Assembly: GCA_026026165.1 (NCBI GenBank)
Contig: JAPEUD010000108.1
Coordinates: 1-53,138, forward strand
Direction: 5' to 3'
Length of the DNA: 53,138 nucleotides
DNA from: Sarea resinae
Taxonomy: Eukaryota
The translations under genes and the position numbers were made by a program. Under the pieces are notes generated by a model, which saw only the letters and a program-made list of their open reading frames with translations, was not told where the DNA came from and made no database searches. Positions within the stretch are counted from its first letter, which is position 1; each line of letters opens with the position of its first letter. Shown in pieces: positions 2,178 through 53,138 of this stretch.

Positions 2178-4674
2178 GCCTCGGTATCATCCATGTGACT
2201 CTGTACGTTACTGCAGTCCGTCCTGTCCTGTCCTATCCTGTTCTGCATCAAATCAGTCGTCCAGTCTCGCGGCCGGAAACACTGGTGCATGCATCCATTT
2301 CAACTCCCTCTATCCATCTAGAGTAATGTAATGTAAATATCTGTACTGTATAGCTCGAATGCTTTTTCAAAAGTTCGGGATAAATACCAATGCAGACACC
2401 AATGCAGACACAAGAAATGCAGTCATACGTTCAGTAGGTAGGCAAAATACGCCCGGCTGTGCTGCGGACCTTGGGAACCCTGGTCAAGGGGGGAAGAGTC
2501 TGGGAGCTTGGGGCACGCACCACTGGGGAGATGATATGTATGGAGTAGTATGTAGGGAGGGGGAGCAGGGCGCTAAAAGATGGTGGAGGGGTGGGCTTTG
2601 TTCGGATTGCGGGGAAGAGGCGTTGCATTACCTTAGAAATACGGGGTAGAAGTAGGTACAGTACCAGGGGGAGTGGGAGGAGGAGGGAGGGAGGGCAGGG
2701 GGAAGGGGGGCAAGCGCTACTGCGGACATGAGATGGATGCGACATGCGTCGCCACGCCACGAGCGAGAAACATCTGACCTCAGCTCTCGGGCAGCTTGGG
2801 CGGTCAATTTAGCCCATTGTTTACATAGTAGTAATAGTAGTAGTGCAGTGCGGAGTAGAGTACGGAGGATGCAGTACTGTGCACGCCGAAATCAAATAAG
2901 TCTACGAATTTGGAGTAGGGGTAGAGTGTGACCGGCTGATTTGAGTCCGCTACTACTCTCTTCTAGGTTGCTGTCAAAAATCTAGTCGAGCGTGTGACCG
3001 ACGGCTAGCTTACAAGTAGTTGGTAGGTCGACAGAGGCCGAGCAGCGAGCAGCCTTACGAGTTTTACTATATACAGGCGGATGGAGTACGTAATCGAGTG
3101 CTGCTGGCGTTGTTTGGGGATTGGATGTATGAGCATACTGTAAGTTAGGTGGTTTACTAAGGTACGGTATGTACAAGCACATAGGGATGTATGACCCCGT
3201 GATGAGATCCATGAGATCAATCTGATGTCGCCATGTCGTCCGTTCCTGCAGCCGGGTGGCTTTCCTCGGCGTCTCTGTCATCTTGTCCTGCGGCACCGCG
3301 AGCGGTTTTCTGGGAAAAAGCAATATCCAAAGCAGGCATGAGGGCGGTTACGCAGTATGGATGGATGCTCGTCGGCTTGGCATGGACATGGACCTGTGTA
3401 AGGTATTCTTAAATCACGATCCAGCCTGACCGCAGGTCCACCACCGCTTCTTCTGTTGTTGCAGCAATCATGTTTACCAAATCAACAGATGGTTCATACT
3501 TTGCACCATCGTCACCACCGTTTGCATGCTTGACGACTTCACCATGGCAGTGCTACTCGTACTCTATTTACATACAAGTACTCCACATGGGCGCTGGATT
3601 GGAAACGATCGACCCCGCACAATTGCCCATGTGGATGGCGAGATCAAGACAGCTGGTGGTAGACCGAGTTCCTATTACCCCCTCGAAACTGGAGCCCCTC
3701 TGTCTTCTCCACCGGGGCTTACACGTCGCCGGCGGAGGTGAGTAATGGGTGTGTATGGCAACAGGTCCAATATCCAGTAGGATTTGGGAGAAATTGCACA
3801 AGGGCAACAGAGAGGCTTCGTGCTGTGGTCCGGCCGTGGTGCCATAACGTAAGGAAAACGTTGGATGGGCTGTTGGCCACGAAGGCGGCGAAAGAGCGGC
3901 ACTGGATCGTGTGGATCGGTAGATCGGTAGAGCAGCCGAACACCTTCATGGGTACATGATTCGTGCAATGGAAGGACGCTGAAGGTGACGGATGTGAAAA
4001 TTTGCAGGAAGGATCTTCAGGCACGAGTACCTCTCTCGGCGGCCAGCCACGGTGTACGACGCAGTAAGCCCGGCCTGGCCGCCTTGTACCTCTGGCCGCT
4101 TTTACGTGGATGCGTCGATGCCGTCACTCGGCCACAGCGTCTGTGACTTCGGTCGGAACTCGCGAAACGCATCTCTGACGGCGCCACTGCCGTTAACTGG
4201 AAAGCGTCGGTTCTTTTCATGAAGAAACCAAGGGAAAAACACTAACAGTGCCCAGAATGCCCGAGTCATCACTCTGGCCCATCCGCAGTCCTCTGCTGTC
4301 CATCCATCCATCCAGACTAATTCTCGTCGGCCCGTCGCTCTGCCTCCCTCCGCCTTTTGTCTGCGTGACCACAGAATACTGGAGAAGATGCCGTTAACTG
4401 CATAGTTCTTGCAGTTAACGGCATCGTGGCTTTTGCCTGCAGAGATTTCACCATCTTCCACAATGACTCCTCGCAAAGACGTGCGACGAGCCTCGATGCC
4501 TATATAATCACTCTTCACCACTTGGATCGATCAGACTGACCACACCAGCATTTACCACCTCTACAGACATTTACCCTCAAGCATATCAGAGACTCTACTC
4601 AACTCAAGCAATCAAACCAAAAACGGTCATTTACCCTCTCAAATCCCCTCGAAGTCATTACATCATCATCCAGC

Positions 4675-5154
4675 ATGGTATTCCACCTGACTGAGCCGCA
4701 CCCATCGGTGCCATCCACCTCCTACATCCACTCTGGCCGCGGCGGTGCTGGCAACGTCGTGCATGTTCCTGCCAACAGCACCACACCATCAACCACCGCT
4801 TCTGGCCCTGCCGCTCGCATCCCTCTCCCAGCCCCACCAGCCAACGAGCGCTTTGCTGCTGGCCGTGGTGGTTTCGGAAACATGCACACCAACAGCGAGC
4901 GTGCCATCTTCAGCTTCGATGAGGAGCTCGAACGCCAGCGCGCCATTGCCGGCCGTGAGGCACCCGTCTTCCACATCGGTCGTGGTGGAGCCGGCAATGC
5001 CGTCGACGACCACCCGAGACCAAGGAGCGGTCGTCTCAACTCCATCGACTCGACTGCCAGCCGTGACAGCGATGACAGCGGCGCCGGCGCTCGGGCACGC
5101 CGGAGCATCGATGGCGTTCTCGACAGACTCAGCCATACCTTTTCGAGGAACTGA
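4675..5154 (+). CDS. PAR32: DUF3602 / Par32-like protein
   Basis: Three GRGG(A/F)GN motifs (HSGRGGAGNV, AGRGGFGNM, HIGRGGAGNA) typical of Par32/DUF3602; TATATAA at ~4501. The symbol reflects family resemblance only. Confidence 0.8.
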   Translation: MVFHLTEPHPSVPSTSYIHSGRGGAGNVVHVPANSTTPSTTASGPAARIPLPAPPANERFAAGRGGFGNMHTNSERAIFSFDEELERQRAIAGREAPVFHIGRGGAGNAVDDHPRPRSGRLNSIDSTASRDSDDSGAGARARRSIDGVLDRLSHTFSRN

Positions 5155-6047
5155 AGAGAAAGACTCGCTGTCTAGGATTCTCTTTCAACTCTTTGAATTC
5201 TCATCAGCGAGATATCCTCGTCGTCTGTCTACACCAGCAATCAGCATACCCTCCAAATTTTCATCCAGTATACCCCCTCGTCAATGGTCAGATGGACTAG
5301 ACGTCGCCACAAAAGCCTTGGCGCCTTCGATCCAACGACCCAGCACGATCTTCTTTCAACATCCATCAAAATATCCACGACTGGTCCAATGACGGAATTG
5401 CATCTGCATCCGCGTCCGACCCATGAGCACGAGCATACGCATACGCATCTGCATTTCCAATCGCATCGCGTCTGCTTCGTCATTGCTTTGCCAGTTTGAT
5501 TCTTTCCGCGTCATTCACAACGCATATCACGATAACGATCACGACCCCAAAAGTGCTTTTCTGCGTCTGGAGTTTGTGCACCATCGGCATTTGTGTATTC
5601 AGGCGGTCGGTGTTACTAGGAAAGGGGAAATATTTGGAAAATACCCCAGGGATCTGACCGAGGTGATCAGAGCATTACTATCTACCAACGTAGCACATAG
5701 CACATAGCACGATTTAATCAATAATCTTTTCCACAAATTCTCGTGCACAGATTGAGAATTGGAGATGCGAGATGACCATCATTCAAATAAAAACCTCTAA
5801 GCTAACATGGTCTAAGCTAAGATGAATGTATCGCAATTGAGAGCGCTCTCGTAGGGTGCAAGCCACGTAGTACACCCCATTACCCTGCACGCGAAAGCGA
5901 GCGTCAACTCTGACATCACTGTTATCATTATTTCTTTCGCACGCAAAGCAAACTTCCACAATTGAAGGATCTCATGACAACACCGACCTCAATGCAGATA
6001 CCGTTTTGGTGAAAATAAATGTCCAAACATTTCCTGCATTGAACACC

Positions 6048-10270: not shown

Positions 10271-10777
10271 GATGATGATGTTGACGATCCTTCACTCAGG
10301 CTCTGTTCTGGTAAGTTGTAGCTTTTGTTGGTGGTGAAAGAAGCCTGTTTTGGCGTATTTTCCCAAAAGAATGGATGATGGCGACGTGATGAGCGAGAAT
10401 GTTGATTTCGTGCTTGCTGTATTGGGCAAGAATGAATCCCCTGTAGCTCGGGTATCCACAAGAGAAGCAACAGACGGACTCACTCTCTTCTGATGTTTGA
10501 AGAGGTAGTCCCAAAATTGTTAAAATCGGGTTGAAGACGACAATATTTACAAAGAATGCGGTGGAAGGAGTCGAGTAGAGACAATTGGCGCGTGGAATGT
10601 GTAATTACGAGTCGTCATCTCACCTGCCACAGGGCTGAGGGGCCCTCTCGGCCCAACGTCAACGTCAGTGCCGTGTGCTGTGGCGGTGCACATCCGAGCC
10701 TACCCTCTACAGCTCCAGACTTCTTTTTGACAGATTCAAAACACCGTCATCGACAATCATAATCACAGTCATCCACC

Positions 10778-38646: not shown

Positions 38647-39973
38647 TCTGGCTGGTGAGGCGGGGCTTGCAATGCTTCAACAAGACGAATCCGCACCCAG
38701 GAAGTAGCGGCCAGTGGTGTTGACACGGATGCAACCCCAGCGGGCCAAATGGGTGACGGGAACCAGAGACAGATGGGGGGGGATGCTATCGTGAAGTGAC
38801 GGCGATGTATGAGAGTCGAGAGTAGCACCGCACTCGATTGTGCATGGAGGCTGGAAAATTGCAAGTCGAGTCTAGTGGTCGAAAGCAGCGGTCGAAGATG
38901 GAGCCATGTGGCACAAGGGGGAGCGAAGAAGGTTTGGGGTGGGGATGGCGGAGTATGGAGGCGTAATGGGGATCTGTCGTGTGAGATGGTGTACGACCCC
39001 GACTGCCTCTGCGGTCGGATGTGTCTCTGTCGATGTCGTGCGAGGAAGGCCACACCGAGGGTGAAGAGGCAATGGAATGGATTGGGATGATGGAATGATG
39101 GGATGATTGTCCGCTTGTATCATTCCGGTGTTGGTGGTGCGGAGGTCGGGCGGTGGTGGGGGAGTGTCAGCTACCTTAGGCTCGTTGACCCGGGCAGCGA
39201 TGATGAGGTCTCCGGCTCGCGCTCTCACACGATGGACGATGGAGGATGAGTCGAGTCGAGTCGAGTCGAGTCGCAATCACAGCTGGTCGTCACGGTCGTC
39301 ACGGTCAAGGCCCGCCCGGTCTCGCTACTTGGCCATGACCCGGTTAGTCAGGGAGTCCGAAGAGACGTCGTACCTCGAGGCCTGAGAGTAGAGTACTTGA
39401 CCTCAGGTACCTTGCGGTAGGGAATGGCATACCGACACGGGGGAATGGGCCAGAGCTAGCACGTTTCTTTTTCGCGGACCGGGAGGGATCAATTACGATG
39501 GAGATGGAGGGAGCACTGGATGCGGCAATGGATATTGGGATATCGACCCTCTCATCGGATGACTTGCAGGAAGATTGAATGTACTCGGAGTACTCGGGAA
39601 CAGACAGAGTAGAGATCATGGAAGGTGGCGGAAGCCTTTCTGCTGTTGGGTACTCGCTGTACCGGTCCAGACAATGGCATACTCGGTACGATGAGTACCC
39701 GTACTTCATACTCGTACTGGAGGGGCTTGCCTCAGTATACTCAGACCTCGCTTGGCGGGTGGTCCGCTGCGCACGGACCACTATTGCCTAAATAGGCAAT
39801 CCACCAGCCAGAGGTCTGAGGCAACTTCTCTGACGTACTATGACTGAGGCAGGCGATTTGTATGGAGTCAACGATCACTGACTTTAAGGCATAAGATATC
39901 TGCAACTATAACGCTAACAACACTAAAAGTTGCATCAATTAAAAGCCACACTTCTACTGTATAATTGATTACA

Positions 39974-42750
39974 ATGTCTGTGTCTGCAAAGGAATTGTCT
40001 AGTTAGAGGAAGCGTCGCAAGACAACGACTATATCTGCACTAACTGCACTAACTGCACTGACTACACTGTAGACGTTTGCAACTGCAACGCCTACAGCGA
40101 CAAATAGTTAATCTTAGCGACTAATATCTGTATCTAATAGATTATCTTTAAAGGAAAAGGTTAAGATTATCCTAACAAAGCTGTAGGAGTAGCAGTTATC
40201 GCCTATCAACTTTATAGAGATCTAGCTTGATTATCTAGAAGAAGATTAAGAGTATATACAGTTAAAGCATTAAAAAGCCCTTCTTAACATAGTCCTTTAG
40301 TTTGACAACATTATCTATCTCTTACAAACTGCAGATAGAGGTCTAGACACAGTTATTAACAGCAGTGTTGCTTTTATCTGCAGCGATCTAGACTAGCTAC
40401 AAAGCCACTGTCTGCTGCTTAGCTAATATGACAAAGAGACAGACTTAAAGACACTTGACTTAGCTAGCTCTGCAGATCAAATAAAGACTATCGCACCTAT
40501 GCTGTCACGTCTTATTAGCAGAGCTGCTAAATCGCAGTATATTGCGAAACATTAGCAGACAACGCACTTAGCAGACAATAGACAACTAGTTATGACTGCA
40601 TCTATGCTTAGTCTTAGATATACGCAAAAGACAATGAATTGCTTCGCCTGTATGCTAGGACTATATCTATAAGACTCTAGACTAACCTAGAGAGGAATAA
40701 GCACGCTTTATAGCTTAGGCTTAGTGGATAGATATCGCACATTAGATGCGCAGAAAAAGCGGATATTAGAACAGAGCAGAGAACGTGGTCCTTAAACGCT
40801 GTTATTTTTAAAGGCTAACTGTCTAAAGATAGCTATCTGCTCTGCTATGCAGACGTAGGACTACACAGTTGTATACAATAATTTCGAGTGGCACGCAAAA
40901 ACACAGCATCAATTAGTTAGTCATACAGGAACTCTATATTCATACACGACTAGAAAACTATTACGCGGACGATGTCTACTAGATAGCAGACTTACACAAG
41001 ATATGTTTTATCCTAGCGTTTAGGTAGACGTGATAGATCTTCTAGCTGCAGATAGAAATCAGATAGACGACACACAGGCGCGGATTTCGACATATTTCAT
41101 AGCTAGTGCTATCTGCGCGGCATATCTAGATGTTATTAATGATATATTCGCTGCAGATATCCTTATGTTTCTGCAAATGCCAACCCTTAACGTCCTTCTG
41201 CACAGGCAGACTAAGCAGATTACCCTTAGACTAATCACTAAGTCAGAGAGTTCTATTGCAGGCACGTACAACGTGTTAGACAACATATTTGCTAGTCAGC
41301 TAGGGAAGGACACAGTTAACTTTAAGAAGCAGCTGATATTAGTATTTAGTGATCAGAAAACAGCAGGCCTAATCCGCTTATGTTAGCTTAAGCGATTAGA
41401 GGCAGCAGATAGATACAACTGCCTAGACTAGATATTATCTGTACCTAGCCTCTTCTACATGCAGATGAACCTTCTAGCATTGATTGTCAGATCACACTAT
41501 AGAGGACAGAGTAGTCTCTAGCAATATTCGACGCTATATTCGCACATTAATTTCCTTAGCCGTTAGAGTATACCTGCAGATAAAGCGCTCTTCTACTATT
41601 AGCAAGAGCTTGTTCAACATAGCTTTTAGGCAAGGATTGTTGCGTTATTCTTGTCAAAACTCCTAGGTGCATAGAAAAGACAGCATTTAGGTCGACTAGA
41701 CATATTCCTCTGCACATTAACTCCTGCAGAATTCCTTGCTTATGTAGAGGATATCTGCAAAATCGCCTTCTTTGCTGCTAGTTATTAAGAGCTAGCTTAA
41801 TACAAGGCGGATATTTGTTGCGCAGATAACGCTACAGGGGATTCAAAGCAGAAACAAAAGCAGAAACAGCAGCATCTGCCTTATAATACAGAGTATTTCA
41901 ACTACATCTGCTTTATACACTATGTTAAGACGTACCTAACATTAAGGCATGCTATTAAAGCTGCAGACATTAGATTGCTCTGCTATGCGATTGCCTGCAG
42001 TTGTCTTTACTTTAGCAGAAGCAGGTCATTTAACTATTCGCAGGAGATGATTTGTTTATAGCAGCTAATATCTACGCCGACATGTGATCGTTGTCTGCAG
42101 CAGGCGATACTTGCAAACAGTCTTGTTAGCAACTATAATTAACTAGGGACCTTCTTCGAAGTTGATTAGATAAATAAACTTCTTAATCTACAGCTAAAGA
42201 CTATTCTACAGACTAAGGGTAATTTAACTCTCAATGTGACAGCATTGTTTAAGTGGTCAGTATTAATAACTAGTTATCTTGCTCTGCTGCAGTCTTAATT
42301 TGAATTTACGTTCAGAGAACGTATTAACACGTCTCACACTAACAGATCTGCTACAGCAGATATTAGGAGTCTTGCAGATTTGATTGCTTAAGACTCTATT
42401 ATCTATTGCAAGGACAGAAGATCTGCTCACACAGCACTAGGATTATTGCAATTAGGTGTTATGCGGCTAGCTTAAAAGGGACTGCCTACGTTGAGTAGCA
42501 GATATGTAGATCTAGATAAGGCAGATAATGACGATATAGACTAACAAGTTACAGAGGCGTTAGTAGGCCTTAATGTAAGTGTATATCCGCGGCTTTACAT
42601 TTATAATTCTAATGCAGAAGACTGTTCTAGGCATTAGATGCTTAACCTATTAAGCAGACATCCTAATATAATGCCTACTATATCGCTTCTGTAAGCAGAT
42701 ATCGTGTTAGATTATCTAAGTCATTGCATTATTATCGAAATTTCATTTAA
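39974..42750 (+). pseudogene. DUF6589-type DDE transposase, RIP-inactivated (3' end approximate)
   Basis: One frame from ATG 39974 with many TAG/TAA stops. De-RIPped motifs: NCFARMLGLYL..SG...GISTLHGLG, VVY(D)NF (40874), LVF(G)DQKT (41351), VP(G)LF(H)MQMN (~41444) and FFEVD.IN(E)LLN (42158). Probable introns at ~40781-40828 and ~42576-42630. Confidence 0.8.
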
Positions 42751-42810
42751 CTAAACGACTGCAAACACAACTAACAATATCTATTGTATCTATAAACACC
42801 CTTATCACAA

Positions 42811-44678
42811 TTACCCTTGATTACATGACTGCTGCTGTTACTCAACCTAGCTAAACTACCTGCAGCAGATGTAATTCAGAATTTCTAAGACATCTCTAGA
42901 TAGCCTTCTAACATCTGCTCTTAACAAGGTCACCTCTGATCGCAACTCCTCTAAACCTTCTGCTGTACTAGCGTTATTCGCTGCTGTACTAGCGTTTCCT
43001 GCTTTAGCAGAGGCAGACAAAATGGTATTACGCAGGGCATTACGCGGCTAGAGGAGGCTGCAGACGCGTTTATTAACAGTGGCAGTTGACTTATAAGGAG
43101 GGCAGGCAGACAACGCAGCGCGCTAGGTATAGAGTCTGTCACAAACAAGGGCAGCAGGCGATGATGCAGCAGCAGGCGATAATGTGGCAGCAGGTAGAGA
43201 GCTAATAATAGCCTCTGCTTTGCTGTCCTTAAGCTCAGTCAGATCTGTTGTCTTCTGTGCCTGTACAACGTGTCAGCTCCTACTAGATATGCATATCTGC
43301 GTCGAACATACCTTGCTAGGGCGCAGATAACTCTCTTTAGCAGGTGTCTTAGCCCTACGCTTCTGCGACTTCTTGTTTGAACTGTCTTTGATTCTGCTAG
43401 AGGCATAGACTGTATGCTGTAGTGTCTTAGTCCCCTACAACCGCGTCAGCTATATGCATTATCTGCCTAGCAGATATACAAACCTAATCGCCTGCAGACT
43501 AATCGATATTAAATTTGCATGGCTTGCTAGCCTGTCAGCAACTAGCGCAGCTGTCTCTAGGTTTTACTATAGCCTTTTTAGGCTTATTTTTGTACACCTT
43601 ACAGCGCAAGCCTCTTTTAACGCAGCGTTTACACTTTGTCTGCAGTTTAACTCCCTAATATAGATCGTTTATAATTAGATCTGCATAGGCGTAGGCCTTT
43701 TAGCAAGTTCCTCTAAGGCTGTCCTATACTGACTAGTCACATGCAAGCCAATCTAGAGTCGTAGGCTTGTGGATATACTATTGCTTGTTGAAGAATTAAG
43801 ACTGTGCACAATTACAAGGCGCAGATAGATCTGCAGACAAACCTCCTTGTTTAGATAATGCGTCTAACGTCTTGTCTGATCCTTTTTAGGAACCTTCTAG
43901 CCTAGATAGCAGCTTCTGTGATTTCTTACCTCTCTGCGTATTTGTAGTAGTCTCTTCAGCTAGTGTCTCCTTAGCTAGTGTCTCCTCTGCTAGTGTCTCC
44001 TTAGCTAGTGTCTCCTCTGCTAGTGTCTCTGCTAATGTCATATCTGCTAGTGTCTCTGCTAATGTCTTATCTGCTAGTGTCTGTTCAGCTAACGTTCCTG
44101 CTTCCTGCATAAAAAATTTCTAGAATTGCAGAGGACAAAGCAGTTTAGGCGTGTCTCTACAACGCAGGTTTTGTGTTATCACTCTAGCACGCGAACAATA
44201 ACTGTCGTCACCTAGCAGAAAGGCGAATAGATCCTTGCTATAATAGGTCAGTTATTGCAGCTGATTTACATATGCTTATAACAGCGAGAGACGTTTAGTT
44301 GACAGTAAAATCACTTACCTAGTGTTCACAGTAGGTGCTAGAGCAGACGCGGACGCAGACTAGCCTATATTCTCACTTAATAGAGGTTAGTAACAGCAGC
44401 TGATATACTTATGCGTTTAACGCGAAAGATAGCAGTCAGCTAATAGTAAGATAACTTACCTAGCGTTTATAGCAGCAGATGCAGACTGAATCAACTCCTC
44501 ACTATATAGAGGTTAGCAACTGCAACTAATATGTGCTAATATAGAATTAAATTGAGTCAGAGGACTCGATCTAGTTAGAATTTATCACTTATATAGACCT
44601 TAAGGCACCCTTGTCTCTAGTAGCAACTCTCCTAACATACTCCTCTAACTTATCTCTGCTATCGCCTGATCTAGCTAT
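42811..44678 (-). pseudogene. Spliced gene encoding a Cys6 zinc-cluster-like protein with repeats and a C-terminal coiled coil, RIP-inactivated
   Basis: Reads CKRCVKRGLRC-x17-CASC*QASKPC at 43633-43517. GTAAGT donors and CTAAC/CTGAC branch points at 44240-44530; TLA(E/K)E repeats at 43955-44095; tail ELRSEVTLLRADVRRL. The start is assumed to be an ATG>ATA codon at 44678. Confidence 0.65.
43955..44095 (-). repeat. 12/15-bp coding minisatellite (TLAEE/TLAKE/TLAE)
   Basis: Repeated GCTAGTGTCTC(CTTA/CTCT/T) units on the + strand. Confidence 0.85.
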
Positions 44679-45789
44679 AACAGGTATTAGAAGTGATAAG
44701 AGACTTAATAGCTTGCTATTAAGACTGCAGCAATAAAGTTACAATAGAGATAGTTGAGGTTGATTAGTTCAACTAGACAAAGACAATGCTATAATCATAA
44801 GAAGTTAAGTTAAAAGTAGAGAGTAGTTGCTAGGGTTAGGTGCTGAATATAAACAGATTAATTAGACAAGGTGTTCTTTGTTCGAACTGCATTCACTTAT
44901 TAATAGCGCGTTTTCTTTGTTGCGCGGATTGGCTGCAGGTGAATGTTTATATCTGCCTCTACTAAGGGCTAACGTCTCTTATATGATATGTCTACTGCGG
45001 CAGACAATGTGTTACCTTATAAGATACAACGCAAACGACTGATTAGTAGCGAATCAGATAGCTGACTTGATATATCAGATGTTGCTAAAAGAGACAAGTC
45101 AGCTATAGCTGATATAGCTGATAGAGAGGGATAAGTTTAAGTCGTCGAATTATCTGCACAGATACAGGCCGCTAACGCGCCTAATTCAGACTTGTCTAGA
45201 GGCCTGCCATCCTATTCTGCACATCTAATCAACGATTCTGCATCATGAATACTAGTCTTCTACAGACATATCTGCTCTATAACGTCTACTGATATCACAT
45301 ATCCTAGCACTAGGACCTAAGTCATATCCTTGTACTTTGTCTGTAGCCACTCTAACGTTGTAGAGGGACGAAATAGACGCACTAAATCAGTGCTAAAGCA
45401 GAACACCTAGACAGTCCTAATAACTCCTTGTGTAGTCGACGAGATAGCTATAACAACTACTTAACAACCTACTACTAAGGCATAATCAGTGGAATAGCAC
45501 GAAGCAGAGAGATCAGAAGGTGACTGCTTCTCTAGGAAGGAAGTAGTAGGAGAGCTCTTAATTAATTGATTTAACTAAAGAATAAAGAACTGCTCTGCGC
45601 TTAAAAGCTGCCTGAAAAACTAAACATGACTGAACTAATAAACTTCTGAATTGATCCTGACCCCTTAACGTAACACTATCCTCCTTGAACTACATGCCCT
45701 AAGAACAATGCACGTGATTTGCTGACTAATCCTGACCGAACCATTCTGACCTATGACATCCTTCCCCTCTACAAAGTGAAAGTTGTCCC

Positions 45790-48700
45790 TTAACTTTCAA
45801 CAAGATCATTATCGTCGTGCTTAGCAGAAGGGTGTGTAGCCCTAATTCTAGAAGATTGGCGAACACGTTTAGGATCTAGCGCGTCATCAGAATCTGATCG
45901 ATTTCTCTTGTTCGTGGTTTCGTCGTGCTTAGTTCCTAATAGTGATACAGCGGCAAACTGTTGTAGTGCGACATCAAGCTCTATATTCTCGGCGGCGCGG
46001 GTCAGGCAGGACACAGTCTTGTCAAAGACATCTTTGATTAGGGGCGGTACTAGCGTGTCCTCTAGGAGCTCAACTAGTTGTAGTCGTGCACGTCAGTAAA
46101 GAACAGTGGTGCCAAGCTGAATAGGACTTGTGACTATGCCGAAGGAGGACAGGCGAACAGACAGGGACGTAGCTTCTGCTAGAGAGGAGACTGTAGTGGT
46201 TTTAGTCAGCGGTTGCTGCGCATTCTTAGCTTCGCGGACTCTCTAAGCGACCTGTTCGAACAGTGTTTGTCTAAGTAATACTGACTTTAGAACTAAGGCT
46301 ATGCTTTTAGCTAGAGTGCTAGGTAAACTTCTAGACAGTCTAGGTGTTCCTTAGTCTGATTTGTCGCTGTCGTACTCGAAGTCGGATAGGTCAGGGTCTT
46401 TGTCATCGCTGACGACTATGACTTTATTGTCACAGGCCTAGAAGAAAGATTTCTGTCTATACACGCGTCTTTCCTCCTATTCAACTAACGACTAGCTTTT
46501 CTTAACAACTTTTACTGCTGTTGCTCTCTATTTGTCACAAAGCTTATTAAACTTTCTTGTCTTATTGCCTAGCATAATATTGCGTTCTTCGATAACCGCA
46601 GGATTATCCTACCGCCTCTGACTAACTAATGCATCTGATAGGGCCCTGAGTCTAGTGACAGCAACATTGGCAAGGAACTTGTAAGGGATACTGCTATGCG
46701 TGTTAGGATGCCCTGACAGGCTATTTAGTCTAGGCACTAGATCTTGATGCGCTATTGCTATATCGTTCTACGTACCTAACTTAGGAATTTCAAGGGTATT
46801 GTGATCTTTCTCAATTTTGACAAGCTATAGGAAAATCGATCGACAAACTTTGGTCAGATCAGGTGCTAGACTGTGCGGAATTGTTGGCAGAGTAAAGCGT
46901 ACGCTGTAGGCTAGACAAGGTTGTCGCCGCGTTTTGATACCCAGCTTTGCAGAGTCAGCAAGAGTCTACATCTTAGCGTCGATGTCTTAAATCTTGCTGG
47001 TTTGACTGTATCGTTTAGGCTCTTGTTTAGCAATCTCCGCGGCCTATTAATCGATCTTCTTATGCATTCCTAACAACAGTCTCACGCAGTTGTGATTATC
47101 TTCTTTGTTAAACGAAACAGCTACTTGCACTATGTTAACCTCTCGACCTTCTTCTACTATCAACTGTAAATTTTGGTCTAAGTGAAAGAACTAAACTTTG
47201 TCCCTTAGATGCACATGACGCGCGTAATAGGGGTAGGAAATGAGATCAGTGGCGTGATTAGGGCGTAGTAGTACAGTCTAGGCATAGAGGACAGGATCTT
47301 AGCAGATGAGCTGCTAAATAGTAGAGTGCATCATAGTTCGCGCCTATCCTATATCAGATGCTCTGTTTACTAAGCGTTAATAGTGGTGGTACATTTCGAA
47401 CTCATTGTCTATGATCTAGTCTAGGCCTTTCGTTTTTATCTATGCAAACATGTCTAGTATGATCACTGATCTATTTTCTTCCTACAGAAGCTCTGCAGTC
47501 TTTCCTATTTCTTTTTGCACTGCTCCTAGTCCTAGCACGTAGTCCTTATCCTCTGCTTCTAGCTTGAGTCAGTACAGTCCTTGCGCGTCACTCTCGCGGG
47601 CTAGGCGGTGGTCTTTTAGGAACCAAAAATATGAGTTTCTTCTCACTTTAAGACCTATAACGTCCTGTGTCATCTGGATAGTTAATAGGCGCTTGATTAA
47701 TTCGTGGTCCTTGCGCGATGTTTAAAGCCTAAATTTTCCAGCTAACGCGCGCAAATGACTTCTGCAAAGATTGGCATTGACATCCTAGACCTATTGTGCC
47801 TACTGATTAACATAGCTCATTGCTGTGTTAATAGAGACCTCTTTCTGGCTCGCGACTTCTTCTTTGAACTCGTTAGTGACACACAGAGAACAGCGACAGT
47901 TTTTAATAGCCTTGTCTTTGTTATCGGTTTCGTTTTCCTTGTCTTTCTTCTAGACTGTCCTGAAGTTCCCTGTCTTCTCTTCTCTACTGTTGGTTGGGCC
48001 TAGAGTGTGCTCGCGGTCTAGAGGGCTGGTAGGCGGTTCGTCTAGAGAGATCTCTTGCAGGGTGGTAGACAGTTAGTCATCTAATCTTAGAAAGACTCGC
48101 TCCCCTTAGTAGCTAGGTTCTGCTTTTCGCAATATGCTATGTCTATCGATATACGCATTGTGCTTTTCTAATTCCTCTGAAGTAATGTCTATAACAGCTG
48201 GGCTTTTGTTTTTGGCTTTAACAGAGGTGGCTACAGCAGTCTAATCGGCAGAGATCTAGGCAACAGCTAGCATGTTTGCCCCCTGCCCCTTTCCTTTGCG
48301 CAGTCTGATTATAGCAGCTGAGTTTACTATTTTCATGCTCTCTTTAAACGAATATTTCAACGCTACAGCCTTTATCGCGTCTAGTACATTCCTTGCTATG
48401 TTGCCTAGTGGTAGAAGATTTGCTGTGTCTTCTAGTCTCTATTCTTTTTGTATCACTGATCTTGCTTTTGCGATTCTCTTCTGATTTGTCTGTCCTAACG
48501 CTGCAACGCGCTTGAATTCTTGCATAGCACTGTCCTTCCTATTGAGCATAGCTACTAAGGCTAGGTATCTCTGTATGCTATCCTTAGCTAAAGTGAACAA
48601 GTACGCGAACTCTGTGATTTTAGCCCCTATTTCTTCAACAAATCAGGCGAACCACTCTCTTTGCAGCTCTATTTCTAGTGTGCCGATATAGCTGAGGAAA

Positions 48701-49029
48701 TGTTCGATGTTGCGAAAGTCTGTATTCCGAATAGTCAGGAAAGATTGAGTTGTAGGTAGAGGCGGCTGAACAGTATTCAAGGCTAGTCTAACTGTTATAT
48801 TTAGTGCTGCTTGCTCTGAACTTCTAGACAGGCTAGGAGTTTCTTCGTTTGGCGTCTCAGGCTGATCTGCTTCTGCTATGCCTGGTTCGTCCCTTATAGT
48901 AATATCGTCGTCGTTGGTCTAGGGAAGCAGTACGTTCAGTGTGAGAAACATTCCTAGTTCGTCAGAATAAGAAGATGTAGAGGGTAGTGCAGAGGTAGAC
49001 AGAACAATTGTTTCTTCGTTGTCTGACAT
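45790..49029 (-). pseudogene. 1,079-codon ORF with a PhyH-like 2OG-Fe(II) dioxygenase domain, RIP-inactivated
   Basis: ATG 49029 to TAA 45790 is exactly 1,080 codons with no frameshift and more than 30 stops, each explicable as a transition from CAG/CAA/CGA/TGG. Motifs LISYPYYARH, FFHLDQN (HxD, 47184-47176), VQVAVSF, LLGMH, VRFTLPTIPH (distal His 46875-46873) and V(R)RSIF. Confidence 0.72.
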
Positions 49030-49164
49030 GTTGTAATTCTAACTACTAGACTGTCCTGAAGTTGCTGATAGTGATTTGGATAGGAATAGAGGAGGAATCT
49101 GTTTATCAGATAGTATGTCTGTCTGCAATAACAAGGGCGAAGTTTCTTTCAGAAGATGCTGAGT

Positions 49165-49287
49165 TAAGCGAGCCAATCAAAACTAGGCATTTAACTGAGC
49201 CAATGAGAATGGTAGATAAGCGAACGAATTAGAGGACAGGGCAGTAAGCGAGCCAATCAGTATGAGAATCGTAAGCGAACTAATAAG
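49165..49287 (+). promoter_or_regulatory. Five-unit spaced repeat, consensus TAAGCGAGCCAATCAG (CCAAT-box-like)
   Basis: Units start at 49165, 49192, 49217, 49245 and 49272 (spacing 27, 25, 28, 27); three keep AGCCAAT. Confidence 0.6.
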
Positions 49288-49878
49288 CATTGAGTATGAA
49301 AAATCAGTAAGAAGAAGAACAGAGCGGCGGCGGCAGGCAGTCATAGAGAGATGTAGGAAATATGTAGGAAGGATAGAGGCAGGCAGGGTCGGCCTAATAT
49401 TTATACTCCTCGCTTAGCTAGCCTGATCTAGATATCTAGACAATTATCGTCGAACATCGGCAGTAAGAAACTCTTTTTCTTTGTCTTTTATTGATTGTTA
49501 TAGCGGTTGCTAGCGTGCTATAGCTGATTCTAGGTGTGTAGTGGTTGCTTTGTTGTTGTTTGTTTGTCGCTTAGCCTCACCTCACTTTTTAGTGAGGAAC
49601 GCTGCAAAAGGTAAGGTAATGTTAAGCCACGTATAAATAGCGTGTAATCTGTGTGTAAATTGCGTGTAAATTGCTGCGGTTGCTCGAGTAGGATCACCGC
49701 TGGCTTATATCTTGTTGCTTAGTCATGTAGCGAGTCAGTTGCGCCGTGTGTTTTCCTATATGCTGAGTCATAAGTGCCGGCTTAATAAGCAGTCTTTTGC
49801 GCCTTTGATTGCCTTGTGCTCCTTTGCTAGCAGGTTGATGCCAGTAGTAATCTCATGCTTGCGCCAGGTATTTGAGCT

Positions 49879-50009
49879 TGTAACACTGTAAATAGGTTTC
49901 TGTTAGTGGTTTTAATCAGGTATGAGTAGTCGTATTATAAGGTGTTATATGTGGCGTTTGTAGGTGGTTTCAATTGAGTTTCTATGCATTAGCAGTGCAT
50001 ATGCATGCA
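49879..50009 (-). repeat. Putative 3' LTR of the Ty3/Gypsy element
   Basis: On the minus strand a PPT GGAAAAAGAGGGGGGTAGAGG (50030-50010) is followed by TG at 50009, and the segment ends ...GTGTTACA at 49879. The second LTR is outside the window, so the distal end is unconfirmed. Confidence 0.6.
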
Positions 50010-53000
50010 CCTCTACCCCCCTCTTTTTCCTAGAAACTGCTAGGCAGTCTAGTAGTTTCTGATAACCTAGCTTATCGTGGCTGGCGGTGAATAACTACCC
50101 TAGCTGCAAAGCGACAGCTTTGTGGCAGCACATATGCTTAAAGGGCTTCTGCATCCTTAGCAGTGATTTCATTGTTGTTATCTCCTGTATCACTATCGAT
50201 TAGTGTTTCTTGCGAAGCTGGCGTGTTAGGGCTCTGCAGGGTGCGTGGTGACTAAGGGGTTTGTAGACTGCAAGGAGTAGTCAGACGTTAATCTTAATCA
50301 GGACTGCTAGGCGGCGGCGAAGAGGCTCTAGAGTCTGTCTCAGGCTGAATTCGCTGAACAAATAGCTTTAACCTGTTGCTATAAACTGTGCTAGCTAGGG
50401 GGCTGCTATCTAGCTCTTCTAATTTGTGCGTTCCTCTGTCTAGGTCTACCCACGTGACCTAATAGGGTCCTATCTAGCGAAAGGCGAGCTTTGACGTGTA
50501 ATTGTTGTCCAGCTTAGTATCGTGTAACAATACTATATTCCTAACCATAAAGGGTGTTTGACAGAGCTAATAAGAGTCGTCGAATAACTCCTTATTTTCT
50601 TCTTAGATTCTTTGTAGGTAGAGCTGTGTGTTCTTAAGGTCCTTAGTACAGCGTTCTAGTTGACGAGCTTAAAGAGCTAAGAGGTTAGCAGTGCTGCGCA
50701 CTAAACCCTAATCCAGTATATGCTATGTAGGAAGTCTGAGCTTAATAGGAAGGACAGCATCATAGCTATATAAAACTTTGTACAGTGTCTTGCTAGTGCT
50801 AGCACGAACAGTGGTTCGATCCGCCTATAAGACTGCAAGAAGGTGTTCGACCCAATTATTTCTGCCGCCTTCTGTCAATTTAGATAAAGCATTAACAATA
50901 GAGGTATAGCCCCTTTCCACGAGTCTATTTGCCTGAGAGTGATAAGCAGAGACAACTGCATGATTGATCTTATACTTTTCAGCGAGAATTTCCACAGCGC
51001 GTTTATTCTCTAGTCCTCTGTCTGTAACAAGTTTCTAGAAACATCTGTGTCGACAGATAACATCCTCCTAGAGGAACTTTGCAACTGATTCTAAGGTCGC
51101 ATTAGTCAGCGCCCTTGCTTTAACCTATCTAGAGAAATCATCGCGAGCCACTATAATATTTTTCTTCTGATTGCACTGCGGCATGTGAATCATGTCTAGT
51201 CTGATTTTCTCAAAGCATGCAAAGGACTATGTAGAGTGTAAGGCTTCTTCTTGCTGATTTAGCTTCCTCTGTTAACATTCCGCGCAGCTGCGAACATACT
51301 GTGCAACCTTAGGGAACAGTTTCAGCCACTAGTATTTGTCTGCAATCCTTTAGTAGGTTCCTTCCTAGCCTCTGTGTCCACTATTATCATGCGCTTCTTT
51401 AAGGACTTGACAGCGATCTTGTTCTTTATCCACAACTCTTTAGAGAGGCATGTTCTTTAAGGCTCTCTTAAACAGATAGCGGTCGCGTACAAGGAATTTG
51501 ACCGCATAGTTTTTAAAGTGTCGAAATTCCTTGCTATCTATATCTTCTAGACGGTCTAGATGTATGAGCTAGCGCGCGATCCGTTCTGATTCTTTAGAGT
51601 AGAGTCCTTCTTTAAGGACAGGTCCTGCATCTCCTTCCACTGATATAGGAAAAACTCTCACAGGATATAGCTCAGCATCGATGACGTTGTCTATGTCTAC
51701 TTTATTTTCTATTTCGACTAGGTCTTCTGCTGTTGCAGGTTGTCTAGACAGGCTGTCCGCGGCACTGTGTTTCTGTCTAGGGACATAGCAGACTATGAAG
51801 TCAAATAGCTGTATCTAGGCTAGCCAGCGCGTAACTAATGCTCTAGGGAGGTCTGATGCTAGCATGTTTAGTTGAGCCACAAGCGTATTAGCATCTGATT
51901 CCACTGTAAATTCTTGGCTGTACAAATAGACTTGTACTTTCTTTAACGCTTTAAGTAGTCCTTAGCATTCTCGCTTCCTAGCATCATACTTCTTTTCGGC
52001 ATCGTTCTACAGACCACTTTCAAACCAGATAGGGTGTCGCTTTCTAGTATGTAGGTTGATCTGCATTAGCACTGCTCTCTAACCTAACAAGCTTGCGTTA
52101 ACAGCTAGGATTATCTCTCCTCCTTCTAGTCTATAGACTATTGTAACAAGCGCGGGTGCAGAAGTCAGAGCGTACTTTAGCTAGTCTATAGCGAAAATCT
52201 GGTCTTGTCCCTAGGTAAAATCGACATCCTTCTTAAATAGGATAAATATTGGTCTGGCTATAATCGCGAAGTCCTCGATAAAAATTCGATAGTAGACGCA
52301 AATTCTAATAAAGGCCTAGGCTTCTGTGACGTTCTTACATTCTAGCCATTCGACAATTTTTAGGACCTTAGTGCTGTCAGGATGCCTGCTGTCTAAGTCG
52401 CATACATATCCGACTATTTTTATGCCACCTATGCCGAACTGTGACTTTTCTCTAGAAACTGTGCATCCTGACCGCTCGATGTCAACAAGGACCTTGTCTA
52501 GTGCCTGAATATGTTCCGCTATAAAGCGCCTTATGCCAGGTAGGATCTCCTCATTGTTGTAATTTGTCTTCAGCCCTTTTACGCCGATATCGTCAAGGAA
52601 CGGCCTAGCTAGTCTTGGTATATAGTCGGCTAAGATTTTAGTAACAATCCTTACAAACTGTGCCACTGAGTTAGTTGCCCCTTGTAGTAAGGTAGTCTGA
52701 CGTAGCAAGCCAAGTGGTGTTATAAACGCGGTCAAATCTTAGCAATGCTCTGCTAACTCGATTTGGTCGTATCTAGAGAAGAAATCAATCAAGGAGGCCA
52801 CCTGCATTCCTGCAAATTCCTCTGAAAACTCCTCTACTAACAGTAGGAGGTTTGCATCTTGTATCGTGACCTTGTTGATTGCTATTGCTGCATTTACCAT
52901 GCGATATTTTCCGGATTTCTTCTTCACTAGGAACCAGGGGTTTCGGTAAGGCCTATGGCAGGGTTTAAGGAGACTATTCTTAAGCCTTTCTTAAAGCATC

Positions 53001-53138
53001 TCGATAATCGTTTCAGTCAGTGCCTGCAGAACCAAGAAGCTGCTCGCCTGCTATGCCTTATGTAGAATAGTTCAGATCTCTTGCAGAGGCGCAACCTTAG
53101 GACAAACCCTTCCAATTTCTGAGAACTCCTATGCCAGT
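49879..53138 (-). mobile_element. Ty3/Gypsy LTR retrotransposon, RIP-degraded pol (RT, RNase H, integrase), truncated by the window edge
   Basis: Domain order RT (YDQI, TAFITPLG, FLDDI), RNase H (LAV(D)AS, ESDANTL), integrase (HDNSGHRG...CAEC, RDDFS, SAYHSQAN.LVERG, GPY), with numerous TAG stops. Confidence 0.95.

Follow-up and report, generated by a model that had tools for sequence, protein, structure and literature searches.

Iyer et al. reportedly described, in 2014, that genes for TET/JBP dioxygenases are carried by fungal DNA transposons. KDZ, Plavaka, hAT, Harbinger and Helitron elements are among the transposons on which these fungal genes ride (PMC12730594). Retrotransposons can also carry a gene for a 2-oxoglutarate (2OG) dioxygenase: Ty3/Gypsy elements of the orchid Phalaenopsis (25.5 kb, Tat/Ogre-like) have an extra open reading frame (ORF) of 565 aa with an AlkB-type 2OG dioxygenase, which has N6-methyladenosine (m6A) RNA demethylase activity in vitro and is proposed to help the element against host control (PMC9289625). 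Here we compare these systems with a locus in a 53,138-nt stretch of the ascomycete Sarea resinae (GenBank assembly GCA_026026165.1, contig JAPEUD010000108.1, positions 1 to 53,138), which we call the window. It holds a dead gene for a PhyH-like oxygenase, and we consider it about 75% probable that this gene is ORF3, i.e., the third ORF, of the adjacent Ty3/Gypsy long terminal repeat (LTR) retrotransposon. This figure is for the identity of the gene, not for the target of its product.

A first-pass annotation, made from the letters alone, had proposed a hidden minus-strand frame of 1,079 codons with more than 30 stops, and this frame was borne out. It ends with a TAA at 45790-45792 (-) and contains 36 internal stops (25 TAG, 8 TAA and 3 TGA), and the remaining five frames over 45790-49029 have 49-97 stops each. 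Mononucleotide shuffles of the region (n=2,000) gave a mean of 62.8 stops with a standard deviation of 7.5 and a minimum of 40, against the 37 observed. The motifs that the annotation had placed in the frame were all found where it put them (Table 1), and several of the residues it had restored by undoing repeat-induced point mutation (RIP), namely QQLxRQDP, RPD, PHG and RRxxxPW, match the consensus of real homologues.

Those homologues were found with phmmer in an exhaustive search of protein clusters, the query being the window frame translated with X at each stop. The search returned 642 clusters at E<=1e-3, 326 at E<=1e-10 and 119 at E<=1e-30, the best match being P0002 (E 5.7e-76), which is 34% identical over residues 353-887. 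A word-indexed search with window residues 430-900 returned nothing, whereas the exhaustive one did find relatives, and Pfam gave 0 families on the X-read translation. Named members of the family are hypothetical proteins from Sclerotinia borealis, Sarea resinae, Coniocarpon, Vezdaea, Candelina and two Coleophoma species; the Sarea resinae member is 57% identical to the window frame over residues 212-409. Homology to the family is limited to window residues ~174-865. The final 215 codons have no counterpart in the relatives, whose own tails are variable, yet the frame stops where a real ORF could well end, 20 nt short of a polypurine tract (PPT) and 32 nt short of a putative LTR. Over this tail both strands are open for about 100 codons, at 45794-46099 (+) and 45790-46092 (-), which is unusual for AT-rich RIP-like DNA.

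The direction of mutation indicates how the frame acquired its stops. We took the 69 alignment columns that are >=80% conserved in the family and compared the window at each: it agrees at 53 and deviates at 16. Undoing C>T/G>A reverses 13 of the 16 deviations (five of these 13 being stops at a conserved W or Q), and undoing T>C/A>G reverses 0 of 16. This asymmetry is a RIP footprint, left on a gene that once functioned. We also considered an alternative genetic code for the stops and rejected it, because the stops stand where the family conserves W and Q. With 36 internal stops, and with the Arg that binds 2OG changed to Cys, the window copy is dead.

The surrounding DNA also has a RIP-like signature. 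The frame lies in an AT-rich block of 13 kb that runs from ~39.2 kb to the window end; GC content is 0.39-0.44 in 40-53 kb versus 0.48-0.60 in 1-40 kb, and TpA/ApT is 1.23-1.44 versus 0.48-1.05 in the same intervals. The repeats have an observed/expected TA of 1.05-1.20 and the host part one of 0.69, and the second RIP index, (CpA+TpG)/(ApC+GpT), is only borderline in the AT-rich block, at 0.95-1.14.

Depth along the window is given as the summed depth of contigs from the one DNA sequencing run found to contain the stretch, and is not a copy number; no RNA run was listed for it. It is ~335 in the unique flank, 996-1,710 over ORF3 (3-5x the unique flank), 4,171-5,603 over the spacer and pol (4,171-4,316 in the spacer itself) and 16,198 in the bin 45145-45811 (48-fold the unique flank). 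Differences from contig to contig over the region comprise 467 C>T and 513 G>A versus 245 A>G and 233 T>C, with 9-38 transversions per type. The depth excess and the predominance of C>T/G>A together support a multicopy, RIP-diversified family, in keeping with the earlier claim that the gene lies in multicopy DNA.

ORF3 lies directly downstream of a degraded Ty3/Gypsy pol, on the same strand. In a six-frame Pfam scan of 39501-53138, this pol shows the domain order RVT_1, RT_RNaseH, Integrase_H2C2 and rve on the minus strand from 53137, and it is 49% identical to the pol of two intact relatives, L016 and L018 (our labels for loci described below), and 43% identical to that of a third, L039. Detectable pol homology stops at 50351, which corresponds to residue 1068 of the 1,122 in L018 ORF2. 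Beyond the other end of ORF3, the PPT-like sequence directly precedes TGTCA, and this junction parallels that of L018, which has GGCGGGGGAGG before its 3' LTR. An error-free contig of the sequencing run stops at 45238, right after a terminal CA; this contig end and the high depth place the 3' LTR of the window at 45239-45758. We call this LTR putative because the window contains no second copy of it, nor any other long repeat. The first-pass annotation had taken the gene for transposon cargo, and this claim fits the locus, the carrier being a Ty3/Gypsy LTR retrotransposon with pol, PPT and LTR-like repeat. Its analogy with KDZ-type carriers fared less well, since no KDZ transposase and no CxC1-6 domain was found in 39.5-53.1 kb or in the 86 homologues that we searched with Pfam.

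Intact relatives have the same arrangement. A scan of metagenome contigs with a 13-sequence alignment returned 80 loci encoding relatives, and at three of them (L016, L018 and L039) the same gene is ORF3, behind a full-length pol. L018 is a complete element: its TG...CA LTRs of 274 nt, at 127-404 and 10470-10748, are 99.6% identical, and it has a PPT, a likely 5-bp target duplication (ACTAC) and three intact ORFs, i.e., ORF1 (gag-protease, 977 aa), ORF2 (pol, 1,122 aa) and ORF3 (986 aa), the last of which stops 48 nt short of the 3' LTR. L016 has the layout of L018, to which it is 88.7% identical, and the end of the contig truncates its 127-nt repeat. L039 is a wrapped contig of 10,220 nt with gag-pol (including a chromodomain) and then ORF3.

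The L039 contig has a 167-nt terminal overlap and assembles as a circle of the internal region plus one LTR. Four more records, of which ENA supplied two and Logan and JGI one each, contain its ORF3 (926 aa) at >=98% identity; their contigs measure 6.4-10.3 kb. This suggests that L039 is an abundant, young element. At other loci the pol-ORF3 arrangement is decayed or partial (L027/28/31 and L063). For example, L063 has at 1-1856 a C-terminal fragment of pol and then a shortened dioxygenase ORF in which the metal-binding His has become Tyr (FRYID), and no clear LTR ends were seen in the inverted repeat of 276 nt that surrounds the L027 gene. In the ORF3 of L016, L018, L039 and L027, the catalytic and the Cys/His motifs are both intact.

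Selection on ORF3 can be compared with that on the rest of the element. Between L018 and L016, the ratio of nonsynonymous to synonymous substitution rates (dN/dS) is 0.071 for ORF3 (950 codons), 0.069 for pol and 0.173 for gag. By region, the ORF3 ratio is 0.071 in the N-terminal part, 0.081 in the Cys/His module, 0.041 in the oxygenase and 0.263 in the tail. ORF3 as a whole is thus under purifying selection equal to that on pol, and is a selected part of these elements.

Several observations weigh against assigning the window gene to the Gypsy element. The window holds one end of the element, and its 5' LTR and target duplication lie outside. The pol-ORF3 spacer is ~1.1 kb, three times the length seen in intact relatives (333-449 nt), and the depth of ORF3 is well below that of pol, with a step from ~1,100 to ~4,200 near 49147, so many copies may lack ORF3, or pol and ORF3 may be separate repeats. 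Window ORF3 is also no nearer to L018 ORF3 (31% identity, E 6e-69) than to other members (34% to P0002), and its placement in the tree is unreliable (branch length 1.89). Nineteen distinct loci have 1,500 bp or more of upstream sequence, and pol lies directly upstream in only three of them and is absent from this position in 16; L039 and L063 are two further pol-upstream cases beyond those 19. Finally, the retrotransposon-borne copies do not group as one clade in the maximum-likelihood tree: it needs three changes, and 0% of 200 bootstraps unite them.

The long spacer and the step in depth are what favour the idea that two repeats are adjacent by chance. The Gypsy element would then end with its own LTR inside the 1.1-kb spacer, and the dioxygenase would come from a Helitron-, DUF6589- or Plavaka-linked unit or from a host duplicate hit by RIP; members of the family do occur elsewhere beside Helitron, DUF6589, Plavaka/DDE_3 and rva_4 genes, and a DUF6589 gene lies 3.4 kb off within the window. 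We nevertheless judge chance adjacency distinctly unlikely, for four reasons. The order and strand of pol, ORF3 and LTR recur in L016, L018 and L039, and decayed versions are seen in L027 and L063. The spacer has a depth like that of pol, with neither the excess depth of the LTR nor any similarity to the LTR-like repeat over 49030-50190. The PPT and the TG come directly after the ORF3 stop. Lastly, the DUF6589 gene of the window is convergent with ORF3 and differs from it in depth (8-10x the unique flank).

Beyond the retrotransposons, relatives of ORF3 have varied neighbours. These include Helitron Rep/helicase genes at L034 and L035, a DUF6589 gene at L038, Plavaka and DDE_3 transposases at L050 and rva_4 integrase-like genes at L002 and L067, as well as SNF2 or RecQ-like helicases and kinase-like genes; at L030 a gene fragment lies among ordinary host genes. 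The first-pass annotation had proposed looking for transposon genes beside the homologues. Such genes do recur (Gypsy pol, Helitron, Plavaka and DDE_3), but pol in the upstream position is limited to the 3/19 given above. This variety of neighbours indicates that the family is wider than the retrotransposon arrangement and has changed contexts more than once.

Some of these contexts deserve a separate description. L034 (10332-15520) and L035 (6358-11283) have in common the 3' half of the dioxygenase gene only (91.7% identity) and the adjacent convergent Helitron Rep/PIF1 gene (95.8%), and their upstream sequences differ, so a Helitron may have captured part of the gene here. At L038 the DUF6589 gene is intact, has two ORFs and directly follows the dioxygenase relative. 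A conserved ORF of ~1,280 aa that matches no Pfam family is found close to the relatives at L006 (4481-8344), L012 (518-4354) and L003 (18841-19797). The two Coleophoma proteins (P0014/P0154, from C. crateriformis and C. cylindrospora) form one 90%-identity cluster, and the contigs that encode them are 1.8-1.9 Mb long; such copies may be domesticated or reside stably in the host.

Judged by modelled fold and cofactor residues, the C-terminal 330 residues of the family are a PhyH-like Fe(II)/2OG oxygenase. H610, D612, H711, G712 and R721 (P0002 numbering) are >=90% conserved in 119 sequences, and a 124-sequence alignment likewise has the H-x-D, the distal H-G and the Arg ten residues on at >=90% conservation. 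The H-x-D...H metal triad of Fe(II)/2OG oxygenases is therefore present in the family, and it is retained in the window copy; the 2OG-binding Arg is present in the family and intact in the ORF3 of L016, L018, L039 and L027. PhyH (PF05721) matches 31/86 homologues at E<=0.01, with 17/86 reaching the gathering score (22 bits), and no other Pfam family recurs among the 86. In P0065, for example, the stretch matched by PhyH (residues 85-209, positions 98-212 of the hidden Markov model) spans the HxD, the distal His and the Arg.

Structural comparison gives the same assignment. An AlphaFold model of the 380-residue P0042 domain, built from the 124-sequence alignment, has a mean predicted local distance difference test score (pLDDT) of 91.4 and a predicted template modelling score (pTM) of 0.88. 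Foldseek with this model found 42 PDB chains at E<=1e-3, those listed all being 2OG oxygenases or DUF1479/YbiU; the top matches are DUF1479/YbiU/Gig2, EvdO1/MO1, proline hydroxylase, GriE, EctD and SnoN/K. We also compared the oxygenase model with 48,161 chains using VIA-align, which scored YbiU (4rgk_A) at 16.9 (root-mean-square deviation 2.9, 248 aligned), Gig2 (6akz_A) at 16.6, several further PhyH-like oxygenases at 10-12, human PHYH (2a1x_A) at 9.9, and AlkB, ALKBH3, FTO and NMAD-1 at 6.4-7.0. The best 50 rows of this comparison contained no TET/JBP or JmjC chain. Feature matches in the ESM Atlas are PhyH clusters, a BFVD search yielded nothing beyond generic PhyH-like proteins from phages and giant viruses, and a 13-homologue profile against PDB sequences gave a best E of 1.6, on a low-complexity stretch.

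Pfam in the homologues, the fold and the HxD...H...R residues thus agree with the first-pass annotation, which had called the gene a PhyH-like Fe(II)/2OG oxygenase with a double-stranded beta-helix (DSBH). It had also staked this assignment on the restored protein modelling as a DSBH with a clustered His-Asp-His triad; the family domain does model as a DSBH with AlphaFold and Foldseek, so the contrary outcome did not arise for the fold. A protein may keep such a fold and serve as a structural or binding protein, like the PhyH-fold subunit of the trypanosomal RNA-editing complex. For ORF3 we regard this as highly improbable, because the metal triad, the Arg and adjoining residues are >=90% conserved in 119-124 sequences and because the oxygenase core has the lowest dN/dS of the ORF3 regions (0.041).

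The rest of the protein is less easily compared with known folds. We modelled residues 1-540 of L016 ORF3, which gave a confident helical domain (15-210), a disordered linker (213-345) and a second helical module that holds the Cys/His motif, with helices at pLDDT >90. Neither the 15-210 domain nor the Cys/His module had a convincing match among known folds, and the ORF3 N-terminus does not resemble either of the element's other ORFs, ORF1 and ORF2 (best E 2.4). C361, C363, C407 and H410 (L016 ORF3 numbering) are >=90% conserved in 98 sequences and are a probable zinc site. A KDZ-like CxC domain was considered for this motif and rejected, as it matches no Pfam CxC family. The C-terminal tails are basic (KRRRR in P0002, RVRGKGKERMR in L016), so the protein is probably nuclear.

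These features also bear on whether ORF3 is a passenger, i.e., a captured host metabolic oxygenase that acts on a small molecule and has no role in the element. The nearest folds are indeed small-molecule/amino-acid oxygenases or proteins without a known substrate, most family members lie outside retroelements, and the Coleophoma orthologues are on the large contigs mentioned above. Against this, ORF3 has a dN/dS of 0.071 at a dS of 0.33, equal to that of pol, and the constraint also takes in the first 528 residues, which are non-catalytic. At least three pol lineages, 43-49% identical, have retained the gene, transposon neighbours recur across the family, and it would be unusual for a metabolic enzyme to have basic tails, a Cys/His module and such a long disordered linker. 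We therefore hold the passenger explanation to be improbable and prefer to see ORF3 as a functional gene of these Gypsy elements.

What the protein might do can be set out as a series of steps, each of them conditional. The element would make the ORF3 protein, which would enter the nucleus, where its helical and Cys/His parts would probably help it to reach a macromolecular target. It would then use Fe(II), 2OG and O2 to hydroxylate or demethylate this target, and the modification would aid expression or copying of the element. The target could be a component of host silencing, or a methyl mark carried by chromatin or nucleic acid (counter-silencing), at less than even odds; a protein or RNA of the element itself would be an unlikely one, and the remaining probability goes to something else.

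A broader and still tentative reading, about which we are doubtful, is that a PhyH/YbiU-like oxygenase with a Cys/His module could be a dedicated transposon weapon in Pezizomycotina, retained as ORF3 by active Ty3/Gypsy elements and blunting heterochromatin, methylation or RIP. On the same doubtful footing, the enzyme's substrate might be a component of host silencing or a methyl mark borne by DNA, RNA or histones, which it would oxidise. By analogy, and just as tentatively, it might play on retrotransposons the part that TET/JBP genes play on fungal DNA transposons, with an enzyme drawn from a different oxygenase lineage.

Table 1. Positions of ORF3, its motifs, the carrier element and neighbouring features in the window.
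Feature	Position	Strand	Basis	Remark
Degraded ORF3, 1,079 codons	45790..49029	-	translation + homology	homologous to a fungal protein family of ~900-1,000 aa
C-x-C...C-x-x-H motif (NCRCSLC...LCRSH), helical module	47743..47901	-		retained in window copy
NCRCSLC	47881-47901	-	motif	
LCRSH	47743-47769	-	motif	
PhyH-like double-stranded beta-helix oxygenase core, EFEMY to SFF	46429..47403	-	homology	
LISYPYY	47224-47244	-	motif	
FFHLDQN	47170-47190	-	motif	holds H-x-D
H616 and D618	47176-47184	-		metal H-x-D, retained
PTIPHS	46870-46887	-	motif	
Distal His719	46873-46875	-		retained
VCRSIF	46831-46848	-	motif	
Cys729 (TGT) at the 2OG-binding Arg position	46843-46845	-		mutated, one C>T from CGT
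Polypurine-tract-like AGAGGGGAAGGA	45759..45770	-		directly before TGTCA, 20 nt past ORF3 stop
Putative 3' LTR, TGTCATAGG...ATGATGCA, ~520 nt	45239..45758	-	depth + ends	TG...CA ends
pol-ORF3 spacer, ~1.1 kb	49030..50190	-		between pol end and ORF3 ATG
Degraded Ty3/Gypsy pol (reverse transcriptase, RNase H, integrase)	50190..53138	-	Pfam	5' side cut by window end
Degraded DUF6589 gene	40439-42376	+	Pfam (PF20231)	E 2.4e-41
15-nt tandem repeat, GTCTCCTYWGCTAGT-like	43950-44098			8 overlapping copies
Host protein kinase gene, ~966-1,005 aa	26694-29711	-		beside repeat block

Three further features of the window accompany the element. The DUF6589 gene is RIP-like and constitutes a separate repeat, and the tandem repeat lies between it and the putative LTR, within the RIP-like block. 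The host kinase gene is fast-evolving, and its nearest named relatives, at 32-36% identity, are from lichen-forming Lecanoromycetes. Together with the named members of the ORF3 family, these relatives place the host in Pezizomycotina.

On the sequence data, the ORF3 enzyme seems to do a job for a selfish element: it is a fungal Gypsy oxygenase, conserved as strictly as the polymerase, and its hosts defend themselves against repeats by RIP and heterochromatin. If it does counter silencing, it would offer a direct handle on how retrotransposons survive in genomes with RIP and heterochromatin, and it would point to a new substrate class for PhyH-like enzymes. L016, L018 and L039 are intact natural elements, which makes the question testable without reconstruction. 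A full-text literature search, with supplements and subscription journals outside its scope, found no description of a PhyH-like ORF3 on Gypsy elements.

Among cellular proteins, YbiU and Gig2 (DUF1479; 4rgk, 6akz) are the best fold match, yet sequence identity is only 10%, and DUF1479 (PF07350) matches 0/86 homologues at E<=0.01. Both are single-domain cellular proteins without a transposon link, unlike the ORF3 family, and to our knowledge their substrates are not established. Phytanoyl-CoA 2-hydroxylase and its relatives (PF05721; PHYH 2a1x, PHYHD1 3obz) differ in that only the 17/86 homologues noted above reach the gathering score of their family, and in that the ORF3 family has ~530 extra N-terminal residues and a helical C-terminal extension of 130 residues.

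Among transposon genes, the TET/JBP cargo of fungi resembles ORF3 in being a 2OG/Fe(II) oxygenase found on transposons of several classes, with expanded copy number and a proposed role in counter-silencing. It differs in lineage, since none of the 86 homologues has a TET/JBP Pfam match and none of the best 50 fold rows is a TET/JBP chain. A further difference is that the carrier here is a retrotransposon and that the hosts are RIP-competent Pezizomycotina outside Pezizomycetes. The orchid elements are closer in organisation: they too are Ty3/Gypsy elements with an additional ORF after the polyprotein and a 2OG/Fe(II) oxygenase domain at its C-terminus. Unlike them, the elements described here are fungal and ~10 kb in size, and encode a protein of 900-1,000 aa that is PhyH/YbiU-like and has a Cys/His helical module. 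By its sequence, the ORF3 oxygenase is a third kind on transposons, beside TET/JBP and the orchid AlkB-type.

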